In this document: positions 522-23,312 of the stretch, piece by piece | Position numbering within the stretch: position 1 is the first letter of the stretch | Layout of the letters: each line of letters opens with the position of its first letter | IMG/VR virus record: IMGVR_UViG_3300034418_003613 | Span: 1 to 64,000 of that record | Length of the DNA: 64,000 nt | From: a virus | Strand: one strand, 5' to 3' | Notes under the pieces: generated by a model | What the model saw: only the letters and a program-made list of their open reading frames with translations | Databases searched by the model: none | What the model was told of the DNA's origin: nothing | Translations under genes and position numbers: made by a program

Positions 522-546
522 TTTGTGAACTTTAAAACCAAAACAA

Positions 547-840
547 ATGTCACAGGACGTTGAAAACGAAAAGGAACTGTCTCCTGAAGAACTGAAAAAG
601 CGTAGAGAAGAACTTACTGCGTGGTACAAGGAAAGCGCTAAACACGCTAAGGTGCAGTTAGAATACGAAGAGCTTCTTACCAAGATCGAGAAGGCTAGAG
701 CTGAAAGACTCCAAGCTCAGATGTTCCAGGCACAGGCATATGCTGCTCAAGAAAAAGAGGAGGGAGCAAATGACGAGGCTCGTATGGAGTTTGAACAGGA
801 AATGGCGAAAGCCCAAAGGACTCTGAAGCGTGATCAATAA
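547..840 (+). CDS. hypothetical coiled-coil protein
   Basis: 97 aa, E/K/Q/A-rich and helical. AAAACCAAAACAA leader precedes the ATG; the stop overlaps the next gene. Confidence 0.7.
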   Translation: MSQDVENEKELSPEELKKRREELTAWYKESAKHAKVQLEYEELLTKIEKARAERLQAQMFQAQAYAAQEKEEGANDEARMEFEQEMAKAQRTLKRDQ

Positions 841-9486: not shown

Positions 9487-9571
9487 TAGGAAAAATTGTT
9501 CTTAGCGTTAGCTATATACTGCAAGAAATTAGCAACAGCCGTAAAATATTTAAAGTTTATTCCTACATATA

Positions 9572-9583
9572 TTTGTATATTAT
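9572..9583 (+). promoter_or_regulatory. phage promoter-like motif TTTGTATATTAT
   Basis: Exact copy, upstream of the scaffold/MCP genes. Confidence 0.65.
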
Positions 9584-9620
9584 ATATATAGATAAGTAAT
9601 TAACTATAAAACCAACAAAA

Positions 9621-12859: not shown

Positions 12860-12950
12860 CTCAAAACTTTTGCCAGCTACGGCTGGCATTAGAACTGTAT
12901 ATATACATTTGTATTATTGAGTTCAGAACTTTAATTAAAACCAAACAAAC

Positions 12951-13967
12951 ATGGAAGATTACACAATTGTAGAGAAGTATCAACAGCGAAAAAGTGCTGC
13001 TATTGCCATTAGACCATTCTTTAATGGTGCTAAAGCCAATATGGGTTTAGAGAATTACGGAATGTCACTTCATGATGGAGTGTATCATGAAGAAACTTTA
13101 GCTTGTCTAGAGATTAATGGTGTTAAGAGATATGTCACAGGCTTGAATGAGTTTGCCCCAGAGGTTAAAAACTTAGCTCCCGGTGAGAGAGAGCTCAAGG
13201 TAAAAGAGATCAGAGAGACAGTTTCTCAGTTAGAAAAGGATTTAGCAGCAAATGTTGTTGACCCTGAAGACAAAGAGTTCTGGAATAAACTTAATCTGCT
13301 TAAGCCAGATAATGATAAGTTTTGGTCTAAGATTAGTCTGAGATGCGGTAATGATCCTGTATTTTTAGATCCAGATTCAGATCCTTATGATCTTATTAAG
13401 ATCCATGCTATCAAGGCTGGCGGTTTTTCTATTGTAGCTAAATCTTTGAAGGATGCTAAGATGATGAATCCTACACCAAAGTTTTACTTAGATACAATTG
13501 AGGAGACTGTAACCACAAGAACAGAGTACAGTAAGCTTAGAAACAAAGCGCTTGTTGCATTGGAAGGCATGTATGGAAAGAACAATGCCAAGCTTATGTA
13601 TGTGGCAAAGGCTGTAGATATTGATAGTGTACAGTATACTAAGAATACTCCCGTAGATATCATCTATGAAAACATGGATGCTTACATCAATGGTGAGGGT
13701 ATTGAGAGTAGTAAGAAGAGAGCTGCGGAAATCTTTATTAAAGTTTCTAAGTACTCAATGCAGGATCTTAAGATTACAGCTCTAGTGAAAGACTGCATGT
13801 ATTACAGGTTTATTACCAAGAAAGCCGGAGGGTGGATTGAGACTCTAGATAGTGGGGTAAAGCTTGGTAAGAGACAAGAGGAAGTTGTAGATTTTTTGAA
13901 GAAACCAGATCAAGAAGAAGTTCTTTCAAGTTTATTAGCTAAGGTAGAACCTTACTGGAATTCTTAA
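12951..13967 (+). CDS. conserved capsid-module protein
   Basis: 338 aa, downstream of the MCP, where crAss-like phages carry a conserved core gene. AAAACCAAACAAAC leader. Confidence 0.6.
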   Translation: MEDYTIVEKYQQRKSAAIAIRPFFNGAKANMGLENYGMSLHDGVYHEETLACLEINGVKRYVTGLNEFAPEVKNLAPGERELKVKEIRETVSQLEKDLAANVVDPEDKEFWNKLNLLKPDNDKFWSKISLRCGNDPVFLDPDSDPYDLIKIHAIKAGGFSIVAKSLKDAKMMNPTPKFYLDTIEETVTTRTEYSKLRNKALVALEGMYGKNNAKLMYVAKAVDIDSVQYTKNTPVDIIYENMDAYINGEGIESSKKRAAEIFIKVSKYSMQDLKITALVKDCMYYRFITKKAGGWIETLDSGVKLGKRQEEVVDFLKKPDQEEVLSSLLAKVEPYWNS

Positions 13968-14728: not shown

Positions 14729-14788
14729 TAATGTATCTACCTGAGTAGGTACAGATTTATTTTTTTGTAACTTTTTAAATTTAAGAAA

Positions 14789-16401: not shown

Positions 16402-16953
16402 ATGGCAAATAAGCATATACTAAGTCTAGAGGTTTCTCCAGTTGCCAATTGTGATATACTTAATATCAAGGATACTAGTCAGTATACTACTGATTTACAG
16501 ATTGATTGCGAAGAACTCTTGATAACAGTTCCCGGTTTCAATAAGCCTTATCTAATTAACGTTACCAACGGTTTTGATCTGTCATTAACCAATTGCACTA
16601 TTGGTGTCCAGACAGAGAATTGTGGTGATAAGACTACGGTTATTGCTGATGGTATTTATATTATCAGATATAGTGTAGCACCCACAGATAAGGTCTATGT
16701 AGAGTACAACCACTTACGAGTTACCTCATTGATGACAAAGTATTATAAGGTGCTTTGTGATCTTGATATGCAACCCTGTGAACCCAGCAGCGAAAGATCT
16801 GAGATTATTAGTGAATTAGGTTATATCAGAACTTTAATTGACGCCGCTGTAGCTAAAGTAGAATACTGCCAAAGCCCTAATAAGGGGATGGAGTTATATA
16901 ACTATGCTAAAAAGAGGCTGGATAAGATAGATTGTTCAGCTGTCTGTTGTTAA
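16402..16953 (+). CDS. putative tail/neck structural protein
   Basis: 183 aa with a beta-rich N-terminal half (DGIYIIRYSV) and a helical Cys-containing C-terminal half; structural module context. Confidence 0.55.
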   Translation: MANKHILSLEVSPVANCDILNIKDTSQYTTDLQIDCEELLITVPGFNKPYLINVTNGFDLSLTNCTIGVQTENCGDKTTVIADGIYIIRYSVAPTDKVYVEYNHLRVTSLMTKYYKVLCDLDMQPCEPSSERSEIISELGYIRTLIDAAVAKVEYCQSPNKGMELYNYAKKRLDKIDCSAVCC

Positions 16954-16970
16954 AACCAAAAACCAATAAT

Positions 16971-17392: not shown

Positions 17393-17404
17393 TTTGTATA
17401 TTAT
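17393..17404 (+). promoter_or_regulatory. phage promoter-like motif TTTGTATATTAT
   Basis: Exact intergenic copy upstream of 17447. Confidence 0.65.
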
Positions 17405-17446: not shown

Positions 17447-20400
17447 ATGATTCCTACGAATAACGGCAGTACATCCCCTTGTGATCCTTTATCATCAAAT
17501 TGTGTGGTATGGCAAGGTCCTGATATTTCTTGTATTAACTTATGTAATGGGGATACCATAAGTGATGTGGTCAGTAAGATGGCTACACAACTGTGTGATT
17601 TGGTAACACAGACATGTCAGTGTAATCCAGATTTATCAGGTCTTACTTTAGATTGTATTCCTGCTCCTCCTCAGCAAGATCCTAATCTTACCCAATATAT
17701 GCAGGCTATTGTAGATTATGTCTGCACATTGCCTACATCTAATGCAACCACAATTAATGTAGAGTTGCCAGATTGCTTGCATTATACAAATTCTCAAGGC
17801 AATCCTGTTACATCTTTACCTATTGATGAGTATGCAAAATACTTAGCAAATGAGATTTGTACTATAAAGAGCGCTATCAATATTATTAATAATCAAATTT
17901 TTGATATTGCTAGTCGTCTCTCTATTGTAGAAAGTTATTTTCCAATTGCTTCTCCAACGTCAGAAGTAATATCTTCTTGTATTTTACAAGGCCAGACTGT
18001 TCCCGTATCTACATTATTATTAGCTCTTGAAACAGAGTTTTGTAATCTGAGAACGGCAGTTGGTGATGCTCAAGCTATCAACTTTGCCATTAACGCAAGT
18101 TGTTTATCTGGAACATCTAACATGTTAAGTCAGGGTGGCACTTATGGTAGTCAGTCAGGGTGGATTCAGAATCCAAATACATTAGCAGATATTAATGCTA
18201 ACCAGTGGGTGGCTATTTGCGACATCTATGATGCTGTTGCTAATATTCAACAGAACTGTTGTGTATCGGATTGCAGTGCTGTTTCATGGGCTATGACATA
18301 TAATGTAGTCACAGATCCTGTAAGCGGATTACCTACAACTATCAATTTTAACTTGAATGGTTCAACTGTTCCAAGTGGCTTTACAGATTGCGGTAATTCA
18401 TTTATTGAGATTACTGATGCTAGTGGAGCTAAGATTTCACAATCTATCAATGCTGCAAACTTAGCATCTAGTTCAGTAGGTGTAAACATTGATCTAACCA
18501 ACTCTAATCTTATACTGACATATTCGTTATCTGTTGTTGCACAGCTTTGTGCTACGGATAATAATAATGTATGTCAAGAGATCAAGAATATTACTATACC
18601 ACTTGGCATTCCATGTCCTACTAGTTCTACTTTAACACCTAGTACAGACTCGATTGTAGTTGCTTTTCCTAACAGCTTAACTGGTTCAAATTATACTTAT
18701 AGAATCACTTGTAATCAAGGACCAAATGTTGTTGCTGCAACAACTATTGCAAATCCTGGTGCTAACATTTCTTACACATTCACAGGATTATCTTCGGCAA
18801 CACTCTATACTATCCAGATTAATATTACAGATTTAAGCACACAACAGCAGAGGGCCTGCACTTTAGGTGCGACAACTACACTTGGTGTTAGTTGTACTTC
18901 TCTTGCAATCACAGATGCTTTAGACGAAGCCGCTGTTGCTGGTGACTATTACATTGGTCAGACAGGAACTGTCGAAAATACTAAAAGATTTTATTATAGA
19001 CCCGGAAATAGCATTATTAGACAGGTTGGTGAGGTGTCATTATTTAATCCTGATCTAACTGTTGTTAGTGTGACTGCTGGTGGTAATGTAACTATTAATG
19101 TAGAACGTAATACCGGAGGCACAGGGACACCTACTACTATCATATATGACTATAGTGCAGATATGATTACGTGGACAAATGGAGGATCTACTACCACTAA
19201 TCCTGATAATGGGATAGTTATTGCAACTGGAATTACAACTAAGTCCATTTATGTTAGAGCTCGTCAGAATGATGGTGGTTCTAATTATAGCGAATACACT
19301 ATTGTACGTTATGATTTTAACACAGATCAGACTACAACTATCCAGGATCCTGCGAATGATACTCCAAGTTTCTTAACAAGCCAACCTTCTGGTTTCTTTG
19401 TATCATACGGTACACTTACATGTGGCACACTTACCGAGACTATTCCTGGTGGAAATCTATCAGAGAGTGTTTGGTACTATGTTGGAAAGATTGAAGTTAA
19501 CAGCGTTACTCAATATATCTATGCTGGCTGGAGTGATGCTACAGAAACAGTTACAAAAGTTGTGGCATGTTGCGAATGCCCCGCTTTCTTACTAACAAGC
19601 ACTACATCTGGGTACTTCTGTAACAGTGGATCAAGCACTACTATTGAAATTCCATATGTCATTGGTGACGGTGAACCAGCCTTAAGTATTGTAGCTAATC
19701 CTCAGTACGGAACTGTAACTCAGAGCCCAACCGATGCTAATACCTTTACTTATACCCATAACGGAGCTTCTTCATATGGAGATACATTTGAGGTTAGATT
19801 GACTTCAGACACAGCAGGAGATTGTTCTTCTGTCACTGCAATTGTTCAAGTTCAGATTATTCAGCCTGAGATTTTAGGTGCTCAGGTTTCAGAGACAGAG
19901 GATGATTTTTATATGTTTGTTGATACAAATAGCTTTAGTGTAACAGATGCAGTTACGTTTGAATCTCTTAAGGCTAGGCTGGAGGCTTGGCTTGCATTAG
20001 TTTGTACAGCTTGGAGTGGTGAGATTTTTTTAATTCCAACCACTAGTCGAAGATGGTTACAGTATTCAACTGCTGTTGTTGAAAATGGGCAAAGCGCTAC
20101 AGGTGCTGTTGGAGCTCCGCTTGATGGTGCATCAGAGTGGGTTGCTATTCAAGACTTACCTACCGGTTGGGGAAGCGCTCCTTTAGCAGCTCCTACGACT
20201 AGAGCTAATATTCTTGTATTTTCTAATAATACAAATCCTGAGTATCATGGCGCTACTTTAAGCAGTGGTTTTGGTTCACCTACACAACCTACAGCTAATT
20301 ATCTTGAGGACTATGAGATTCATACTGATATTTTAACCGGTTCAGCTAATAGCGCTTATGGAGTAGCAAAGGCTTTTGGAGGCACATCCCCATTTACAGC

Positions 20401-20815
20401 AGGAATGCAGGTGGTATATTATCCGATTACTGCAGATACTGCAGGTCAATCAGCTTCTGCAATCTTACAAGGTCTGGCATCTTATACAGCTAAAATGACT
20501 CCTCCGAGCGAGTATGGTGTTAGAACGGCTGTTGATGTTACAGGATACTTGATGCAGGGTGTAACACCATCTGCCACTAACCCATATGAAGGGGCTAGCA
20601 CTGGAGCTATTACACTAGAAGGACTTTATAAGAAGAGTGTTCTTATGTTCTTGAATCAACCTGTTGGATCTCTTACTGTTGCAGAGTATTTAACTGCGAT
20701 TTATAATGGTACTGATGACGGAGACTTCCAAGAGAAGATGAAAATTATGTTTGTTGGACATGATGATTTATGCCCGGACAGTACTTCTCCTGCAAGTCCA
20801 GCCTGGCCATCATAA
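17447..20815 (+). CDS. Cys-rich fibre/spike-like virion protein with FN3/Ig-like domains
   Basis: 1122 aa, Cys/Ser/Thr-rich. FN3 signature YTFTGLSSATLYTIQI; Ig-like NPQYGTV...FTYTH...DTF. Confidence 0.6.
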   Translation: MIPTNNGSTSPCDPLSSNCVVWQGPDISCINLCNGDTISDVVSKMATQLCDLVTQTCQCNPDLSGLTLDCIPAPPQQDPNLTQYMQAIVDYVCTLPTSNATTINVELPDCLHYTNSQGNPVTSLPIDEYAKYLANEICTIKSAINIINNQIFDIASRLSIVESYFPIASPTSEVISSCILQGQTVPVSTLLLALETEFCNLRTAVGDAQAINFAINASCLSGTSNMLSQGGTYGSQSGWIQNPNTLADINANQWVAICDIYDAVANIQQNCCVSDCSAVSWAMTYNVVTDPVSGLPTTINFNLNGSTVPSGFTDCGNSFIEITDASGAKISQSINAANLASSSVGVNIDLTNSNLILTYSLSVVAQLCATDNNNVCQEIKNITIPLGIPCPTSSTLTPSTDSIVVAFPNSLTGSNYTYRITCNQGPNVVAATTIANPGANISYTFTGLSSATLYTIQINITDLSTQQQRACTLGATTTLGVSCTSLAITDALDEAAVAGDYYIGQTGTVENTKRFYYRPGNSIIRQVGEVSLFNPDLTVVSVTAGGNVTINVERNTGGTGTPTTIIYDYSADMITWTNGGSTTTNPDNGIVIATGITTKSIYVRARQNDGGSNYSEYTIVRYDFNTDQTTTIQDPANDTPSFLTSQPSGFFVSYGTLTCGTLTETIPGGNLSESVWYYVGKIEVNSVTQYIYAGWSDATETVTKVVACCECPAFLLTSTTSGYFCNSGSSTTIEIPYVIGDGEPALSIVANPQYGTVTQSPTDANTFTYTHNGASSYGDTFEVRLTSDTAGDCSSVTAIVQVQIIQPEILGAQVSETEDDFYMFVDTNSFSVTDAVTFESLKARLEAWLALVCTAWSGEIFLIPTTSRRWLQYSTAVVENGQSATGAVGAPLDGASEWVAIQDLPTGWGSAPLAAPTTRANILVFSNNTNPEYHGATLSSGFGSPTQPTANYLEDYEIHTDILTGSANSAYGVAKAFGGTSPFTAGMQVVYYPITADTAGQSASAILQGLASYTAKMTPPSEYGVRTAVDVTGYLMQGVTPSATNPYEGASTGAITLEGLYKKSVLMFLNQPVGSLTVAEYLTAIYNGTDDGDFQEKMKIMFVGHDDLCPDSTSPASPAWPS

Positions 20816-20829
20816 TAAATAATTAAGAT

Positions 20830-21387
20830 ATGAGTTGTAACTGTACCAAATGTAGTCCTAACAAGTGTAGCTGTAAAGACAGCGCATTGACTAATCCATG
20901 TTCATATACAGAATGCCCTTCTACAGCTGAGAGATGTGATGAATCAGTATCTCCTGCTTGTGTGACTTGGACGGGTCCTGAGACTTTAGTTGAGGATGCT
21001 GAAGGAGACACCTTTGTTATTCAACCGGGTGAGAGATTAGAGCAGATCCTACAAAGGATGATGCTTGTACTAGCAGACGGTCTTGTTGCAGGCAACGCAA
21101 GCAATTCATTCCATGCTCCTTTGAACTTATATATTGGTACTATTACAAGTTCATCTATTGAGTTGTTGTGGTCTGGAGAGGCTACTGGAACTACCAGCTT
21201 GCAAGTTCAATATGATACCGCAGTTGGATCTTCTTGGACTACAGCAGCAACTTTGACTGCTGGTGTGTTTAAAGCAACTATTAGCAGTCTAGTTGCTGAA
21301 ACAAAATACAAGTTTAGAATCATAGCTGATAATGGTGCTACACAACCTGAATCGGTTATTGTATTTGCTACAACGTTGACGGCGTAA
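20830..21387 (+). CDS. Cys-rich virion protein with C-terminal FN3 domain
   Basis: N-terminal Cys cluster; ITSSSIELLW...ISSLVAETKYKFRI is an FN3 pattern. Confidence 0.65.
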   Translation: MSCNCTKCSPNKCSCKDSALTNPCSYTECPSTAERCDESVSPACVTWTGPETLVEDAEGDTFVIQPGERLEQILQRMMLVLADGLVAGNASNSFHAPLNLYIGTITSSSIELLWSGEATGTTSLQVQYDTAVGSSWTTAATLTAGVFKATISSLVAETKYKFRIIADNGATQPESVIVFATTLTA

Positions 21388-21393
21388 ACGGAA

Positions 21394-21457
21394 GTGGTAG
21401 TTTGTTGGTTTTCTATCACAGATGTTGGAGAAGGTCCCTGCGGGGGCCTTCTTTTTT
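21394..21457 (+). ncRNA. candidate small regulatory RNA (seed-loop hairpin plus terminator)
   Basis: Stem GTGGTAG/CTATCAC encloses loop TTTGTTGGTTTT (21401-21412), the exact reverse complement of 9608-9619 next to the scaffold start codon. A terminator follows. Confidence 0.45.
21429..21457 (+). terminator. intrinsic terminator
   Basis: AGAAGGTCCC-TGCG-GGGGCCTTCT followed by TTTTT. Confidence 0.85.
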
Positions 21458-21473
21458 GTTAATTTAATTTCTT

Positions 21474-21481
21474 TAAATTTG
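21474..21481 (+). promoter_or_regulatory. Bacteroidota-type -7 element upstream of the metallophosphoesterase
   Basis: TAAATTTG between the terminator and ATG 21496; no phage motif in this gap. Confidence 0.45.
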
Positions 21482-21495
21482 ATAAACTTCTAAGT

Positions 21496-22707
21496 ATGAG
21501 CCTAAAAGGAAAAGTAGAAGAATCTCTTAAATGGAAAAAGAGTGTTCCGTATTGTGCAGCACGTCTAGATATCTCTGAGAAAACATATTCTAAGATTAAA
21601 CGTGAGATTTTTTCAGAAAGAAAAAAGAAGAAAAAGTTTTTTAGCGGATCTGCAAAGAATGAGCAATTTACTGAGGAGATTAATCTAGAAAAAGGAGAGG
21701 GTAAAATAGCAGGTACATTTGATCATGAGCCTAAATCTCCAGAAGAGATAGTTAAGCTATTAAAGATTGATACAACGCAATGGCGTTTAGCCTCATACTG
21801 GAATAAGCAGATGGGAGATCATTGGAGAGTATCCGCTTTTATAACCAGAGTCAAGCAAGAGGATAAGAATTACATAGAAGATGTAATTAAGAACTGGCAG
21901 CCAAGAGACTACAATATTACAAAACCAGATCACTTTTTGAATAAGAATGCCACGAAAGTTTGTGGCATTATTTCTTTACAGGATATCCATTTTGGCAAGC
22001 AGGGGAATGAAACCATTGACAAAGACTTTGAGGACACACTTAAGGATCTTTTACTTAGGAGCAGTGCAGCACACCACATAGAGAAGTTATTCTTTGTAGT
22101 AGGCGGTGACATGATCAACATGGATTCTTTTTCTGGGACTACTACTAGCGGTACACCATTAGATAATTGTAGCATGGCAACCGATGCATATATCCAAGCA
22201 TTTGATGCTATGCACTGGGGCTTAAACTATGCAAAGGCTTTTTGTGATGAGCTCGTTGTAGTTTACATACCGGGTAACCATGATAGGTTATCATCCTTTC
22301 ACCTAGCTCATGCTCTTTCTAAAGCTATATCAGATCCTAATATTATTTGGGACATTGAATATGCAGAAAGAAAGGTACACGTGTGGCATGATAACTTTAA
22401 CGCATTTGAACATGGTGATGTACCAGCTAAAAACACACCGTTAGTATATGCAACAGAGTATGCTAAAGAGTGGGGATCTACTAAGAATAGGACTTTATTT
22501 GCAGGGCACTATCACCAGAACAGAAAGGTGGAGTATGTAACTACCTCCGAGAACACTGGCTTTATACATAAGACTCTTCCTAGTCTATGTAAGACTGATT
22601 ACTATCATTACCACAATAAGTACGTAGGTAACCAGAGAGCAGGTAAGATTGAGTTACAACATCCGCAGATGGGGAACATCTGTGAGCTCACTTATCAGGC
22701 ACTTTAA
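21496..22707 (+). CDS. calcineurin-like metallophosphoesterase with N-terminal extension
   Basis: All five motifs in order: DIHFG, GGD, PGNHD, EHGD, GHYH. Confidence 0.85.
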   Translation: MSLKGKVEESLKWKKSVPYCAARLDISEKTYSKIKREIFSERKKKKKFFSGSAKNEQFTEEINLEKGEGKIAGTFDHEPKSPEEIVKLLKIDTTQWRLASYWNKQMGDHWRVSAFITRVKQEDKNYIEDVIKNWQPRDYNITKPDHFLNKNATKVCGIISLQDIHFGKQGNETIDKDFEDTLKDLLLRSSAAHHIEKLFFVVGGDMINMDSFSGTTTSGTPLDNCSMATDAYIQAFDAMHWGLNYAKAFCDELVVVYIPGNHDRLSSFHLAHALSKAISDPNIIWDIEYAERKVHVWHDNFNAFEHGDVPAKNTPLVYATEYAKEWGSTKNRTLFAGHYHQNRKVEYVTTSENTGFIHKTLPSLCKTDYYHYHNKYVGNQRAGKIELQHPQMGNICELTYQAL

Positions 22708-22731
22708 ACTTTTATAAGTGCTCTTTTTTTT
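22699..22731 (+). terminator. possible weak terminator overlapping the promoter motif
   Basis: GCACTT...AAGTGC stem followed by TCTTTTTTTT. Confidence 0.4.
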
Positions 22732-22740
22732 GTAAATTAT
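22729..22740 (+). promoter_or_regulatory. phage promoter-like motif (variant TTTGTAAATTAT)
   Basis: 11/12 match upstream of 22752. Confidence 0.55.
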
Positions 22741-22751
22741 AACTATAGACT

Positions 22752-23312
22752 ATGATTAATAATTTCAAAGAGCCCGACCTAAATGCTCCGAGATACAGAG
22801 AGAAAAGGCTTGGGCTTCTAAATGCTGAGGTGATTAATAAGTTTAAGAGTAAGTATCCTCATTATGAGAATATTGATAACAACAAGTTGAAGGACATAAT
22901 TAGGATATATAATAATAAGTTGTGGAATGGAGTGATTGATAATAGAGATGGTGTTGAATTACCTGATTCATTAGGGTATCTTTTTATAGGTACTTGTGCT
23001 CCGGCTAAATCAGTGAATACAAACTACTCACTATCAAAGGAATATGGCAAGGTTTTGCAAAACAAGAATTGGGAAACTGACGGAAACATAGGAAAGATAT
23101 TTTATACAAACTGGTCTACTAAATATAGATTTCGCAACAGAGAGTTTTGGAGATTCACAGCGTGTAGGAAGTTTAAGAGATCTGTAGCCAAGACTTATCC
23201 AGAGAACTGGAATAAGTATAGGATTATGAAGAACAAGTATAGGATAGCACATCTTTTCAACTTTACCCCTCCAGAGAGTGATCTGAAGGGATATGATGAA
23301 TTTGAAAGCTAA
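22752..23312 (+). CDS. divergent IHF/HU-like protein
   Basis: LKDIIRIYNNKLWNGVIDNRDGVELPDSLGYLFI and C-terminal WRFTACRKFKRSV resemble the IHF-like genes of crAss-like tail modules. Confidence 0.6.
   Translation: MINNFKEPDLNAPRYREKRLGLLNAEVINKFKSKYPHYENIDNNKLKDIIRIYNNKLWNGVIDNRDGVELPDSLGYLFIGTCAPAKSVNTNYSLSKEYGKVLQNKNWETDGNIGKIFYTNWSTKYRFRNREFWRFTACRKFKRSVAKTYPENWNKYRIMKNKYRIAHLFNFTPPESDLKGYDEFES

Follow-up and report, generated by a model that had tools for sequence, protein, structure and literature searches.

The end of the virion module and its phage lineage

The stretch of DNA that we analysed (the window) covers the first 64 kb of an IMG/VR record of 77 kb that is about 66% complete. 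The plus strand carries the genes of the first ~66 kb of this record, including a virion module with the portal gene (start 6724), a gene for a 431-aa protein (start 9621) that lies between the portal gene and the major capsid protein (MCP) gene (start 10968), and, after further structural genes, the gene for a 1122-aa fibre-like protein (start 17447). The module ends with gene 20830..21387, which encodes a 185-aa Cys-rich virion protein with a fibronectin type III (FN3) domain. A DNA repair exonuclease-like gene (21496..22707, plus strand), preceded by a TAnnTTTG box at 21474, opens the next module. Between these two genes, in the 3' UTR of the FN3 gene, lie a hairpin and an intrinsic terminator: after the TAA stop codon of the upstream gene (21385-21387), the hairpin begins at 21394, and the terminator extends to 21457.

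All relatives examined carry this element; they are uncultured marine phages with genomes of ~110-129 kb and MCP identities of 67-96%. IMG/VR holds at least 599 relatives by the capsid gene and 216 by the adjacent exonuclease gene. The complete genomes of this uncultured lineage (G007, G009-G011 and G013; records L017, L030, L042, L330 and L332) measure 113-129 kb, and three of them (G007, G011 and G013) have direct terminal repeats. No cultured phage gave a nucleotide match to the window. The best protein match of the MCP is to a Leptolyngbya phage (27.5% identity), followed by crAss-like and Cellulophaga phages. The phage is crAss-like and probably lytic.

Start regions showed no enrichment of Shine-Dalgarno (SD) sequences (3/39, compared with 13% of background windows) and were A-rich at position -3 and at -12/-13, in agreement with an initial suggestion of SD-less, A-rich leaders as in a Bacteroidota-type host. 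Boxes of the form TAnnTTTG, which we take to be the Bacteroidota -7 promoter element, occur at 514-521, 9568-9575, 12904-12911 and 21474-21481. Within the window just four starts have such a box ahead of them, namely those of genes 547, 9621 and 12951, whose leaders share the motif AAAACCAA, and that of the exonuclease gene. The combination of SD-less A-rich starts and TAnnTTTG boxes fits a Bacteroidota host; judged from these signals, we presume the host to be Bacteroidota-type, and Flavobacterium is plausible. In the leaders of genes 547, 9621 and 12951, AAAACCAA begins 12-32 nt past the TAnnTTTG box and thus probably lies near the mRNA 5' end. A second box, TTTGTATATTAT, is found upstream of genes at 9572, 14717, 16350, 17393 and 37791, and at 69441 of the full record. 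Relatives retain it in front of their 9621 and 16402 orthologues, and it is likely to be a phage-specific promoter.

A conserved hairpin directly before the terminator

The hairpin (21394..21419, plus strand) has a 7-bp stem, GUGGUAG/CUAUCAC, with one G-U pair, and a 12-nt loop, UUUGUUGGUUUU, at 21401-21412. In the DNA, the arms GTGGTAG (21394-21400) and CTATCAC (21413-21419) enclose the loop sequence TTTGTTGGTTTT. A single-stranded linker, AGAUGUU (21420..21426), connects the hairpin to the terminator (21427..21457), which has a GC-rich stem of 10-12 bp, a 4-nt loop and a U-tract. Its GC-rich hairpin (21427-21454) stands directly before the U-tract at the end of a gene block, as is expected of an intrinsic terminator. 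RNAfold predicted the same two hairpins at -29.3 kcal/mol (z -3.6), and 1/200 shuffles folded as well. The stem, the loop and the adjoining terminator were therefore placed correctly by the first-pass annotation.

Conservation of this structure is extensive. In 80 relatives found via the exonuclease gene (59-99% protein identity), the hairpin and terminator were co-located in 80/80. We analysed covariation in an alignment of 62 sequences, 58 of them distinct. Over the distinct sequences, 96% of hairpin-stem cells were paired and compensatory double changes were present in 4/7 pairs; in the terminator, compensatory changes were present in 9/10 pairs across relatives. The covariation score for hairpin plus terminator was 0.529, compared with 0.283 for column shuffles (0/500 reached the observed score), and slid controls were about 3-fold lower (0.13-0.19). 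RNAalifold recovered both hairpins without being supplied a structure. A conserved loop with a covarying stem, which had been predicted for relatives, is thus present. At two stem positions G-U is the commonest state, and such frequent G-U pairs indicate selection on the plus-strand RNA rather than on DNA or the opposite strand. The hairpin is a selected structured RNA.

The loop core UUGGUUU was invariant in every relative examined, complete genomes of 110-129 kb included, and the core usually reads UUGUUGGUUU. Distant relatives (MCP identity down to 67%; complete genomes of 122-129 kb that have terminal repeats) present the same loop on rebuilt stems: GUAGAGA/UCUCUAC, AUGAUUG/CAAUCAU, GUAAUG/CAUUGC, GCGG/CCGC, CAGCGG/CCUCUG and an interrupted helix of 3+4+4 bp. 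The linker region (21420-21428; columns 46-54 of alignment A1) contains a conserved AAACGUUGG, a second GUUGG, in the main clade and differs in distant clades. With its repeat of the loop's GUUGG, AAACGUUGG of the main clade may serve as an additional short seed.

The element is confined to one phage lineage. A covariance model (CM) of the element, R1, scored the hairpin at 70 bits and found no copy in the window beyond 21394..21419, the next best scores (18.7 bits) falling on terminators. A pattern scan of IMG/VR for the loop plus GUUGG gave mostly chance matches and is unfit as a family count; its 56 new matches included two clear CM members (60.5 and 96.1 bits) and one marginal match at 30 bits. 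No family of Rfam release 15 matched at its gathering score. The best matches, Atu_C8 (21.5 bits; gathering score 50) and sbrA (20.8 bits; gathering score 45), were both only on the terminator.

The element was initially labelled a candidate small RNA. Its layout is that of a 3'-UTR-derived sRNA: it lies 3' of a stop codon and shares the intrinsic terminator of its parent mRNA, and its loop is more conserved than its flanks and is complementary to putative targets. The label does not extend to a stand-alone sRNA gene. No promoter-like box was recognised between 20830 and 21394, and a 3'-UTR element of the tail-fibre/FN3 operon is therefore the better description. As the nearest upstream TTTGTATATTAT box is at 17393, the hairpin would end a transcript of ~4 kb, or would be reached by read-through from further upstream. 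Four metatranscriptome runs contained short low-depth contigs over parts of 20300-21381 and 21915-22061, none spanning the hairpin. Coverage of the upstream gene stops at 21381, and contigs of this kind carry no information on RNA ends or levels.

Three other interpretations of the site were rejected. In most relatives an A/C-rich flank, AACAACA, sits upstream of the stem (it is missing in the window), and a pseudoknot between this flank and the loop was no better than in composition-matched shuffles (mean z -0.6; 8% at p<=0.1). An inverted-repeat recombination site is contradicted by a core of only 7-12 bp, multiple sites, no invertase nearby and stem covariation at the RNA level. A small ORF, on the minus strand at 21207-21419, merely overlaps the hairpin.

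A different hairpin was observed elsewhere in the virion module of relatives. In orthologues of gene 14789 (L084-L163), which encodes a 497-aa protein, the 5' leader often contains a second conserved hairpin ~10 nt before the ATG, in which the loop GGUAAUGGUC never varies and the stem covaries (GUGGGG/CCUCAC, GCGGGG/CCCUGC, GAGGGG/CCUCUC or GUGUGG/CCACAC). It is missing from 14749-14788 of the window. We regard it as a further candidate structured RNA of this phage group.

Leaders complementary to the loop

The first-pass annotation proposed that the loop is antisense to four leaders. The first site is AAAACCAACAAA (9608..9619, plus strand), a perfect complement of the 12-nt loop that ends 1 nt before ATG 9621 (-13.2 kcal/mol) and occurs only once on the plus strand. 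The second is AAAACCAAACAAA (12937..12949), before ATG 12951 (338 aa), where the proposed pairing with one bulged A exists, and comprises 12 bp rather than 13, since a 13th pair would require opening of the stem. Before ATG 16971, which starts a 61-aa Cys-rich protein, the tandem motifs AAAACCAA and AAAACCAAUAA occupy 16952..16969 (-10.5 kcal/mol). The pairing at 16959-16969 comprises 11 bp including one G-U, as proposed, and a tandem second AAAACCAA is at 16952. These tandem motifs overlap the stop codon of gene 16402-16953; this copy is intercistronic and is therefore an RNA-level signal rather than part of a promoter.

The fourth site, AAAACCAAAACAAA (534..547), runs into ATG 547, the start of a 97-aa charged helical protein (-8.3 kcal/mol). 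Here we confirmed the proposed pairing, in which a 2-nt bulge separates 8 bp from a further 4 bp whose last pair involves the A of the ATG, but the motif was missing in all four leaders of gene 547 orthologues that we found. Of the four proposed target leaders, then, those of 9621, 12951 and 16971 are conserved and that of 547 is not. In the predicted fold of the gene 547 leader (510-553), AUUUGUUUG pairs with CAAAACAAAUG and hides the start codon, and AAAACC lies in a 16-nt loop. With its start in a local hairpin, any action of the RNA on this leader would be a loop-loop contact. The leaders of 9621, 12951 and 16971 are predicted to be unstructured.

The shared motif is concentrated at starts. 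Seven plus-strand copies of AAAACCAA are present in the 77-kb record, and five lie within 30 nt upstream of starts (p ~5e-8): one each at genes 547, 9621 and 12951 and two at gene 16971. Same-composition permutations of AAAACCAA showed no comparable start enrichment in the record. Matches with <=2 mismatches numbered 21, compared with 10.0 +/- 3.3 in shuffles. In a complete 116-kb relative, 6/28 copies of AAACCAA were at starts (p 4e-6), and every tagged gene was in the virion module, upstream of the hairpin. The expected enrichment at start codons was thus found in both genomes. Pairing energy is less telling: duplexes of <=-9 kcal/mol were predicted at 4/47 starts compared with 2.8% of background windows in this single genome, a weak enrichment that cannot carry the claim. 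The evidential weight comes from the relatives.

We examined distinct orthologous leaders from about 160 related loci. AAACCAA was present in 102/104 leaders of 9621, 77/94 leaders of 12951 and 54/71 leaders of 16971. It was absent from the leaders of the MCP (0/108) and portal (0/93) genes and from those of 12653 (0/32), 13978 (0/106), 14789 (0/102), 16402 (0/96), 17156 (0/63), 17447 (0/46) and 20830 (0/32). The co-conservation of AAACCAA leaders that had been foreseen is therefore real, and it is gene-specific. The distance from the end of AAACCAA to the ATG has a median of 6-7 nt and a range of 0-16 nt.

Sequence searches of PHROGs, Pfam and PDB returned no match for the products of 9621, 12951, 16971 and 547. 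In the model of the 9621 protein (431 aa), an acidic, disordered N-terminal region precedes a body made up entirely of helices, one of them 50 residues long; this predicted structure, and the position of the gene between portal and capsid, would fit a scaffold-like protein. In phage P22, the dose of scaffold is under post-transcriptional control, by a protein mechanism. The AlphaFold model of the 12951 protein (pLDDT 85) had no Foldseek match in PDB. Its sole similarity is in residues 269-337 of this protein (gene 12951-13967), which resemble the C-terminal domain of RecA (Z 9.7, rmsd 2.0, 62 aligned residues, 23% identity).

If loop and leaders pair, changes in one should be matched in the other, and one clade provides such a case. 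In this clade (8 contigs, loop verified in 4) the loop is UUUAUUGGUUUU, a G to A change. The base after AACCAA in its three leaders is T in 13 copies, A in 7 and C in 0, whereas in G-loop genomes it is C in 22, A in 21 and T in 12 (Fisher's test of C versus T, 4e-5, a value inflated by shared ancestry, as this is a single lineage). GC content is equal in the A-loop and G-loop groups. The predicted duplex energy is ~-9.6 kcal/mol in both clades, whereas the A-loop with G-clade leaders would give -8.05. A second supportive case is a genome with the loop ...GGUUAC, which has GUAACCAAUAAA in its 16971-type leader. The loop-flank variants UUCGUUGG, GGUUCU, UUUCUUGG and CUUGUUGGUUUGG showed no compensation in their leaders, which suggests that only a core of 7-9 nt is constrained and that the flanks are sometimes used. 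About 7-9 bp is what a closed 12-nt loop can form without melting of its stem, as in kissing and loop-linear complexes. Because an A follows CCAA in ~38% of the motif copies of G-loop genomes, many duplexes would be only 7-8 bp. Invariance of both the loop and the leader core leaves this test little power, and direct covariation depends, in essence, on a single event in one clade.

These observations also bear on a reading in which the complementarity is functionless, the hairpin being a protein-recognised or structural 3' element (for stability, processing, termination aid or as an operator) and AAACCAA an independent enhancer. In its favour, invariance of both motifs is what protein-binding sites would show, compensation is missing for most loop-flank variants, and 3' stabilisers typically sit immediately before a terminator. 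Motifs that are C/A-rich or contain ACA are known to be enhancers by themselves (PMC3879156). However, chance complementarity of the conserved leader 7-mer to the invariant loop core is estimated, from leader base composition, at only ~5e-4. The A-loop clade has lost every C and gained T in three separate leaders at unchanged GC content, duplex energy is kept across clades, and a stabiliser hairpin has no need of an invariant open loop of 12 nt. We consider this reading rather unlikely.

A joint change of loop and leader could also arise at the DNA level. Read as double-stranded DNA, loop and leader motif are identical, so AAACCAA(C/T) could be the asymmetric site of a DNA-binding regulator, with 21401-21412 as an inverted copy, and an altered specificity of this protein would account for the G-to-A and C-to-T match as well. 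Three of the motif leaders do lie 12-32 nt downstream of TAnnTTTG boxes. But the stem arms covary via G-U-compatible changes that are sensible only for the plus-strand RNA, and distant clades, whose stems are unrelated, likewise expose the motif in an open loop of ~12 nt. Furthermore, the 16971 copy is intercistronic, without promoter-like context, and the motif is held 0-16 nt from the ATG, as for a translation signal. A DNA site is, on this evidence, highly improbable.

Proposed mode of action and related systems

Based on these comparisons, we propose that the element functions by base pairing as an 'anti-leader' RNA, with a block of translation initiation as its most likely effect. We hold this model tentatively, as the foremost of the readings considered; pairing and repression in the cell are what we infer. 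The first part of the model concerns the RNA itself. A structured RNA at the 3' end of virion-gene transcripts would hold a 12-nt G/U-rich loop open in a hairpin directly before the terminator, and the acting form may be a processed 3'-UTR fragment of ~65 nt or part of the full mRNA. The second part concerns recognition: the loop core (G)UUGGUUU would pair with the C/A-rich AAACCAA(C/U) 0-16 nt upstream of the starts of virion genes 9621 (scaffold-like), 12951 and 16971, and of lineage-specific extras. The final part is the outcome. The target mRNAs are SD-less and would depend on an unstructured A-rich leader; a double-stranded leader would exclude the 30S subunit and reduce translation, giving negative control of target dose or timing relative to the capsid protein. 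It counts against the model that, barring accumulation of the RNA, a single loop would be shared among three to five target sites.

The same loop-leader pairing might instead activate or stabilise the targets, by protecting the 5' region from RNase or by tethering 3' and 5' regions in polycistronic late mRNAs. The complementarity and its conservation fit this reading equally, and all targets belong to the gene block that the hairpin closes at its 3' end. Pairing of a 3' UTR with a 5' UTR within an mRNA has been documented for icaR (PMC3868564). However, the three conserved leaders are already unstructured and have no inhibitory fold to open, which argues against activation by opening of structure and favours repression, and pairing 0-16 nt from the ATG is inside the 30S footprint, where it is usually inhibitory. 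As for a tether, terminators after the MCP gene and after 14789 separate targets from the hairpin, and many target transcripts would therefore not carry the hairpin in cis. The open leaders, the position of the pairing inside the ribosome footprint and the precedent of GibS lead us to favour repression and to regard activation or stabilisation as unlikely.

The RNA might also act mainly on host mRNAs with A/C-rich leaders, as part of a host takeover, with phage leaders that merely resemble those of the host. Known phage sRNAs often act on host genes (PMC12197685; bioRxiv 10.1101/2024.10.31.621285), and many A-rich leaders of the Bacteroidota type offer pairing partners for a loop rich in U and G. 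Host targets alone, however, would leave the gene-specific AAACCAA leaders of the phages and the matched loop change unexplained, and this is the least probable of the readings that we weighed.

The proposed repression has a precedent in an SD-less bacterium. GibS of Bacteroides thetaiotaomicron represses mRNAs by annealing to translation initiation regions (PMC7366714). In GibS and other trans sRNAs of B. thetaiotaomicron, a conserved single-stranded seed pairs near an SD-less start (PMC7366714), as is predicted for the element, and the host of GibS is without Hfq or ProQ (PMC7366714), a likeness that extends to the element through its presumed host. GibS differs in being chromosomal and intergenic, with its own promoter and an unstructured 5' seed of 30-50 nt (PMC7366714). 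In contrast, the element is phage-encoded, lies in a 3' UTR, has its 12-nt seed in a hairpin loop and mirrors leaders of the phage's own virion genes; the two have no sequence relationship.

Other systems share single features with the element. One is the c4 antisense RNA of phages P1 and P7 (Citron and Schuster 1990, as cited in PMC12197685). According to that review, c4 is likewise a structured phage RNA with loops complementary to repeated sites in ribosome-binding regions, and it blocks translation (PMC12197685). In our sequence, too, an exposed loop is complementary to start regions predicted for the phage's own mRNAs. Unlike the element, c4 is reported to control the immunity/antirepressor operon of a temperate phage; it pairs through two loops and is released from the 5' portion of the very transcript under its control. 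The element instead occupies the 3' UTR at the end of the structural module in a crAss-like, probably lytic phage, and its complementarity is to leaders of virion genes. The Rfam C4 model gave no match over 20000-23000 at E up to 10. Sharma et al. (2007) reportedly described GcvB acting on C/A-rich elements. GcvB and DapZ silence several mRNAs through a G/U-rich seed that pairs with a shared C/A-rich element, which is just upstream of starts and itself favours translation (PMC3879156), an arrangement predicted for the element too, and DapZ, a 3'-UTR sRNA, likewise shares the terminator of its parent mRNA. Unlike the element, both are enterobacterial and Hfq-dependent, with linear seeds and host transporter targets; they are non-homologous to it and had no Rfam match here. 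In Staphylococcus aureus icaR, a 3'-UTR motif also pairs with the initiation region and inhibits initiation (PMC3868564), but it does so within one monocistronic mRNA and targets the SD (PMC3868564), whereas the element faces several SD-less cistrons 4-12 kb upstream with terminators between. The sX13 RNA of Xanthomonas resembles the element in that short invariant hairpin-loop motifs recognise a shared motif in many mRNA 5' regions (PMC3771888); it is chromosomal, has three C-rich loops that pair with G-rich targets, and is unrelated in sequence (PMC3771888).

The riboregulatory circuit suggested by the first-pass annotation has therefore gained from the comparative predictions and from one natural compensatory change, and it has lost its fourth target to poor conservation. 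Most known phage regulatory RNAs are lysogeny switches or act on host genes. Our literature search found no paper describing the element, or a phage RNA that controls the translation of virion genes. A search of a 2025 review of phage-derived sRNAs found no mention of the capsid and no RNA with control over a group of virion genes (PMC12197685). We conclude from sequence comparisons that the element is probably a new phage RNA that controls the amounts of three virion proteins. The fuller form of this model is possible, though we would put somewhat less trust in it: a lineage-wide, dedicated 'anti-leader' master RNA whose tail-borne loop would titrate a C/A-rich tag doubling as an SD-less ribosome landing pad, and would thereby determine when, or in what ratio to capsid, scaffold-like and accessory virion proteins are made.

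Some uses follow directly. The covariance model now allows the hairpin RNA to be annotated in viromes, and the natural G-to-A / C-to-U pair is directly usable as a compensatory-mutation test. SD-independent initiation in the presumed hosts is still poorly understood; in the AAACCAA tag, its study would gain a defined leader element that can be tested. If the model is true, very abundant uncultured marine phages would have a lineage-wide riboregulator of their morphogenesis genes, and the control of phage morphogenesis would include an undescribed layer at the level of translation.
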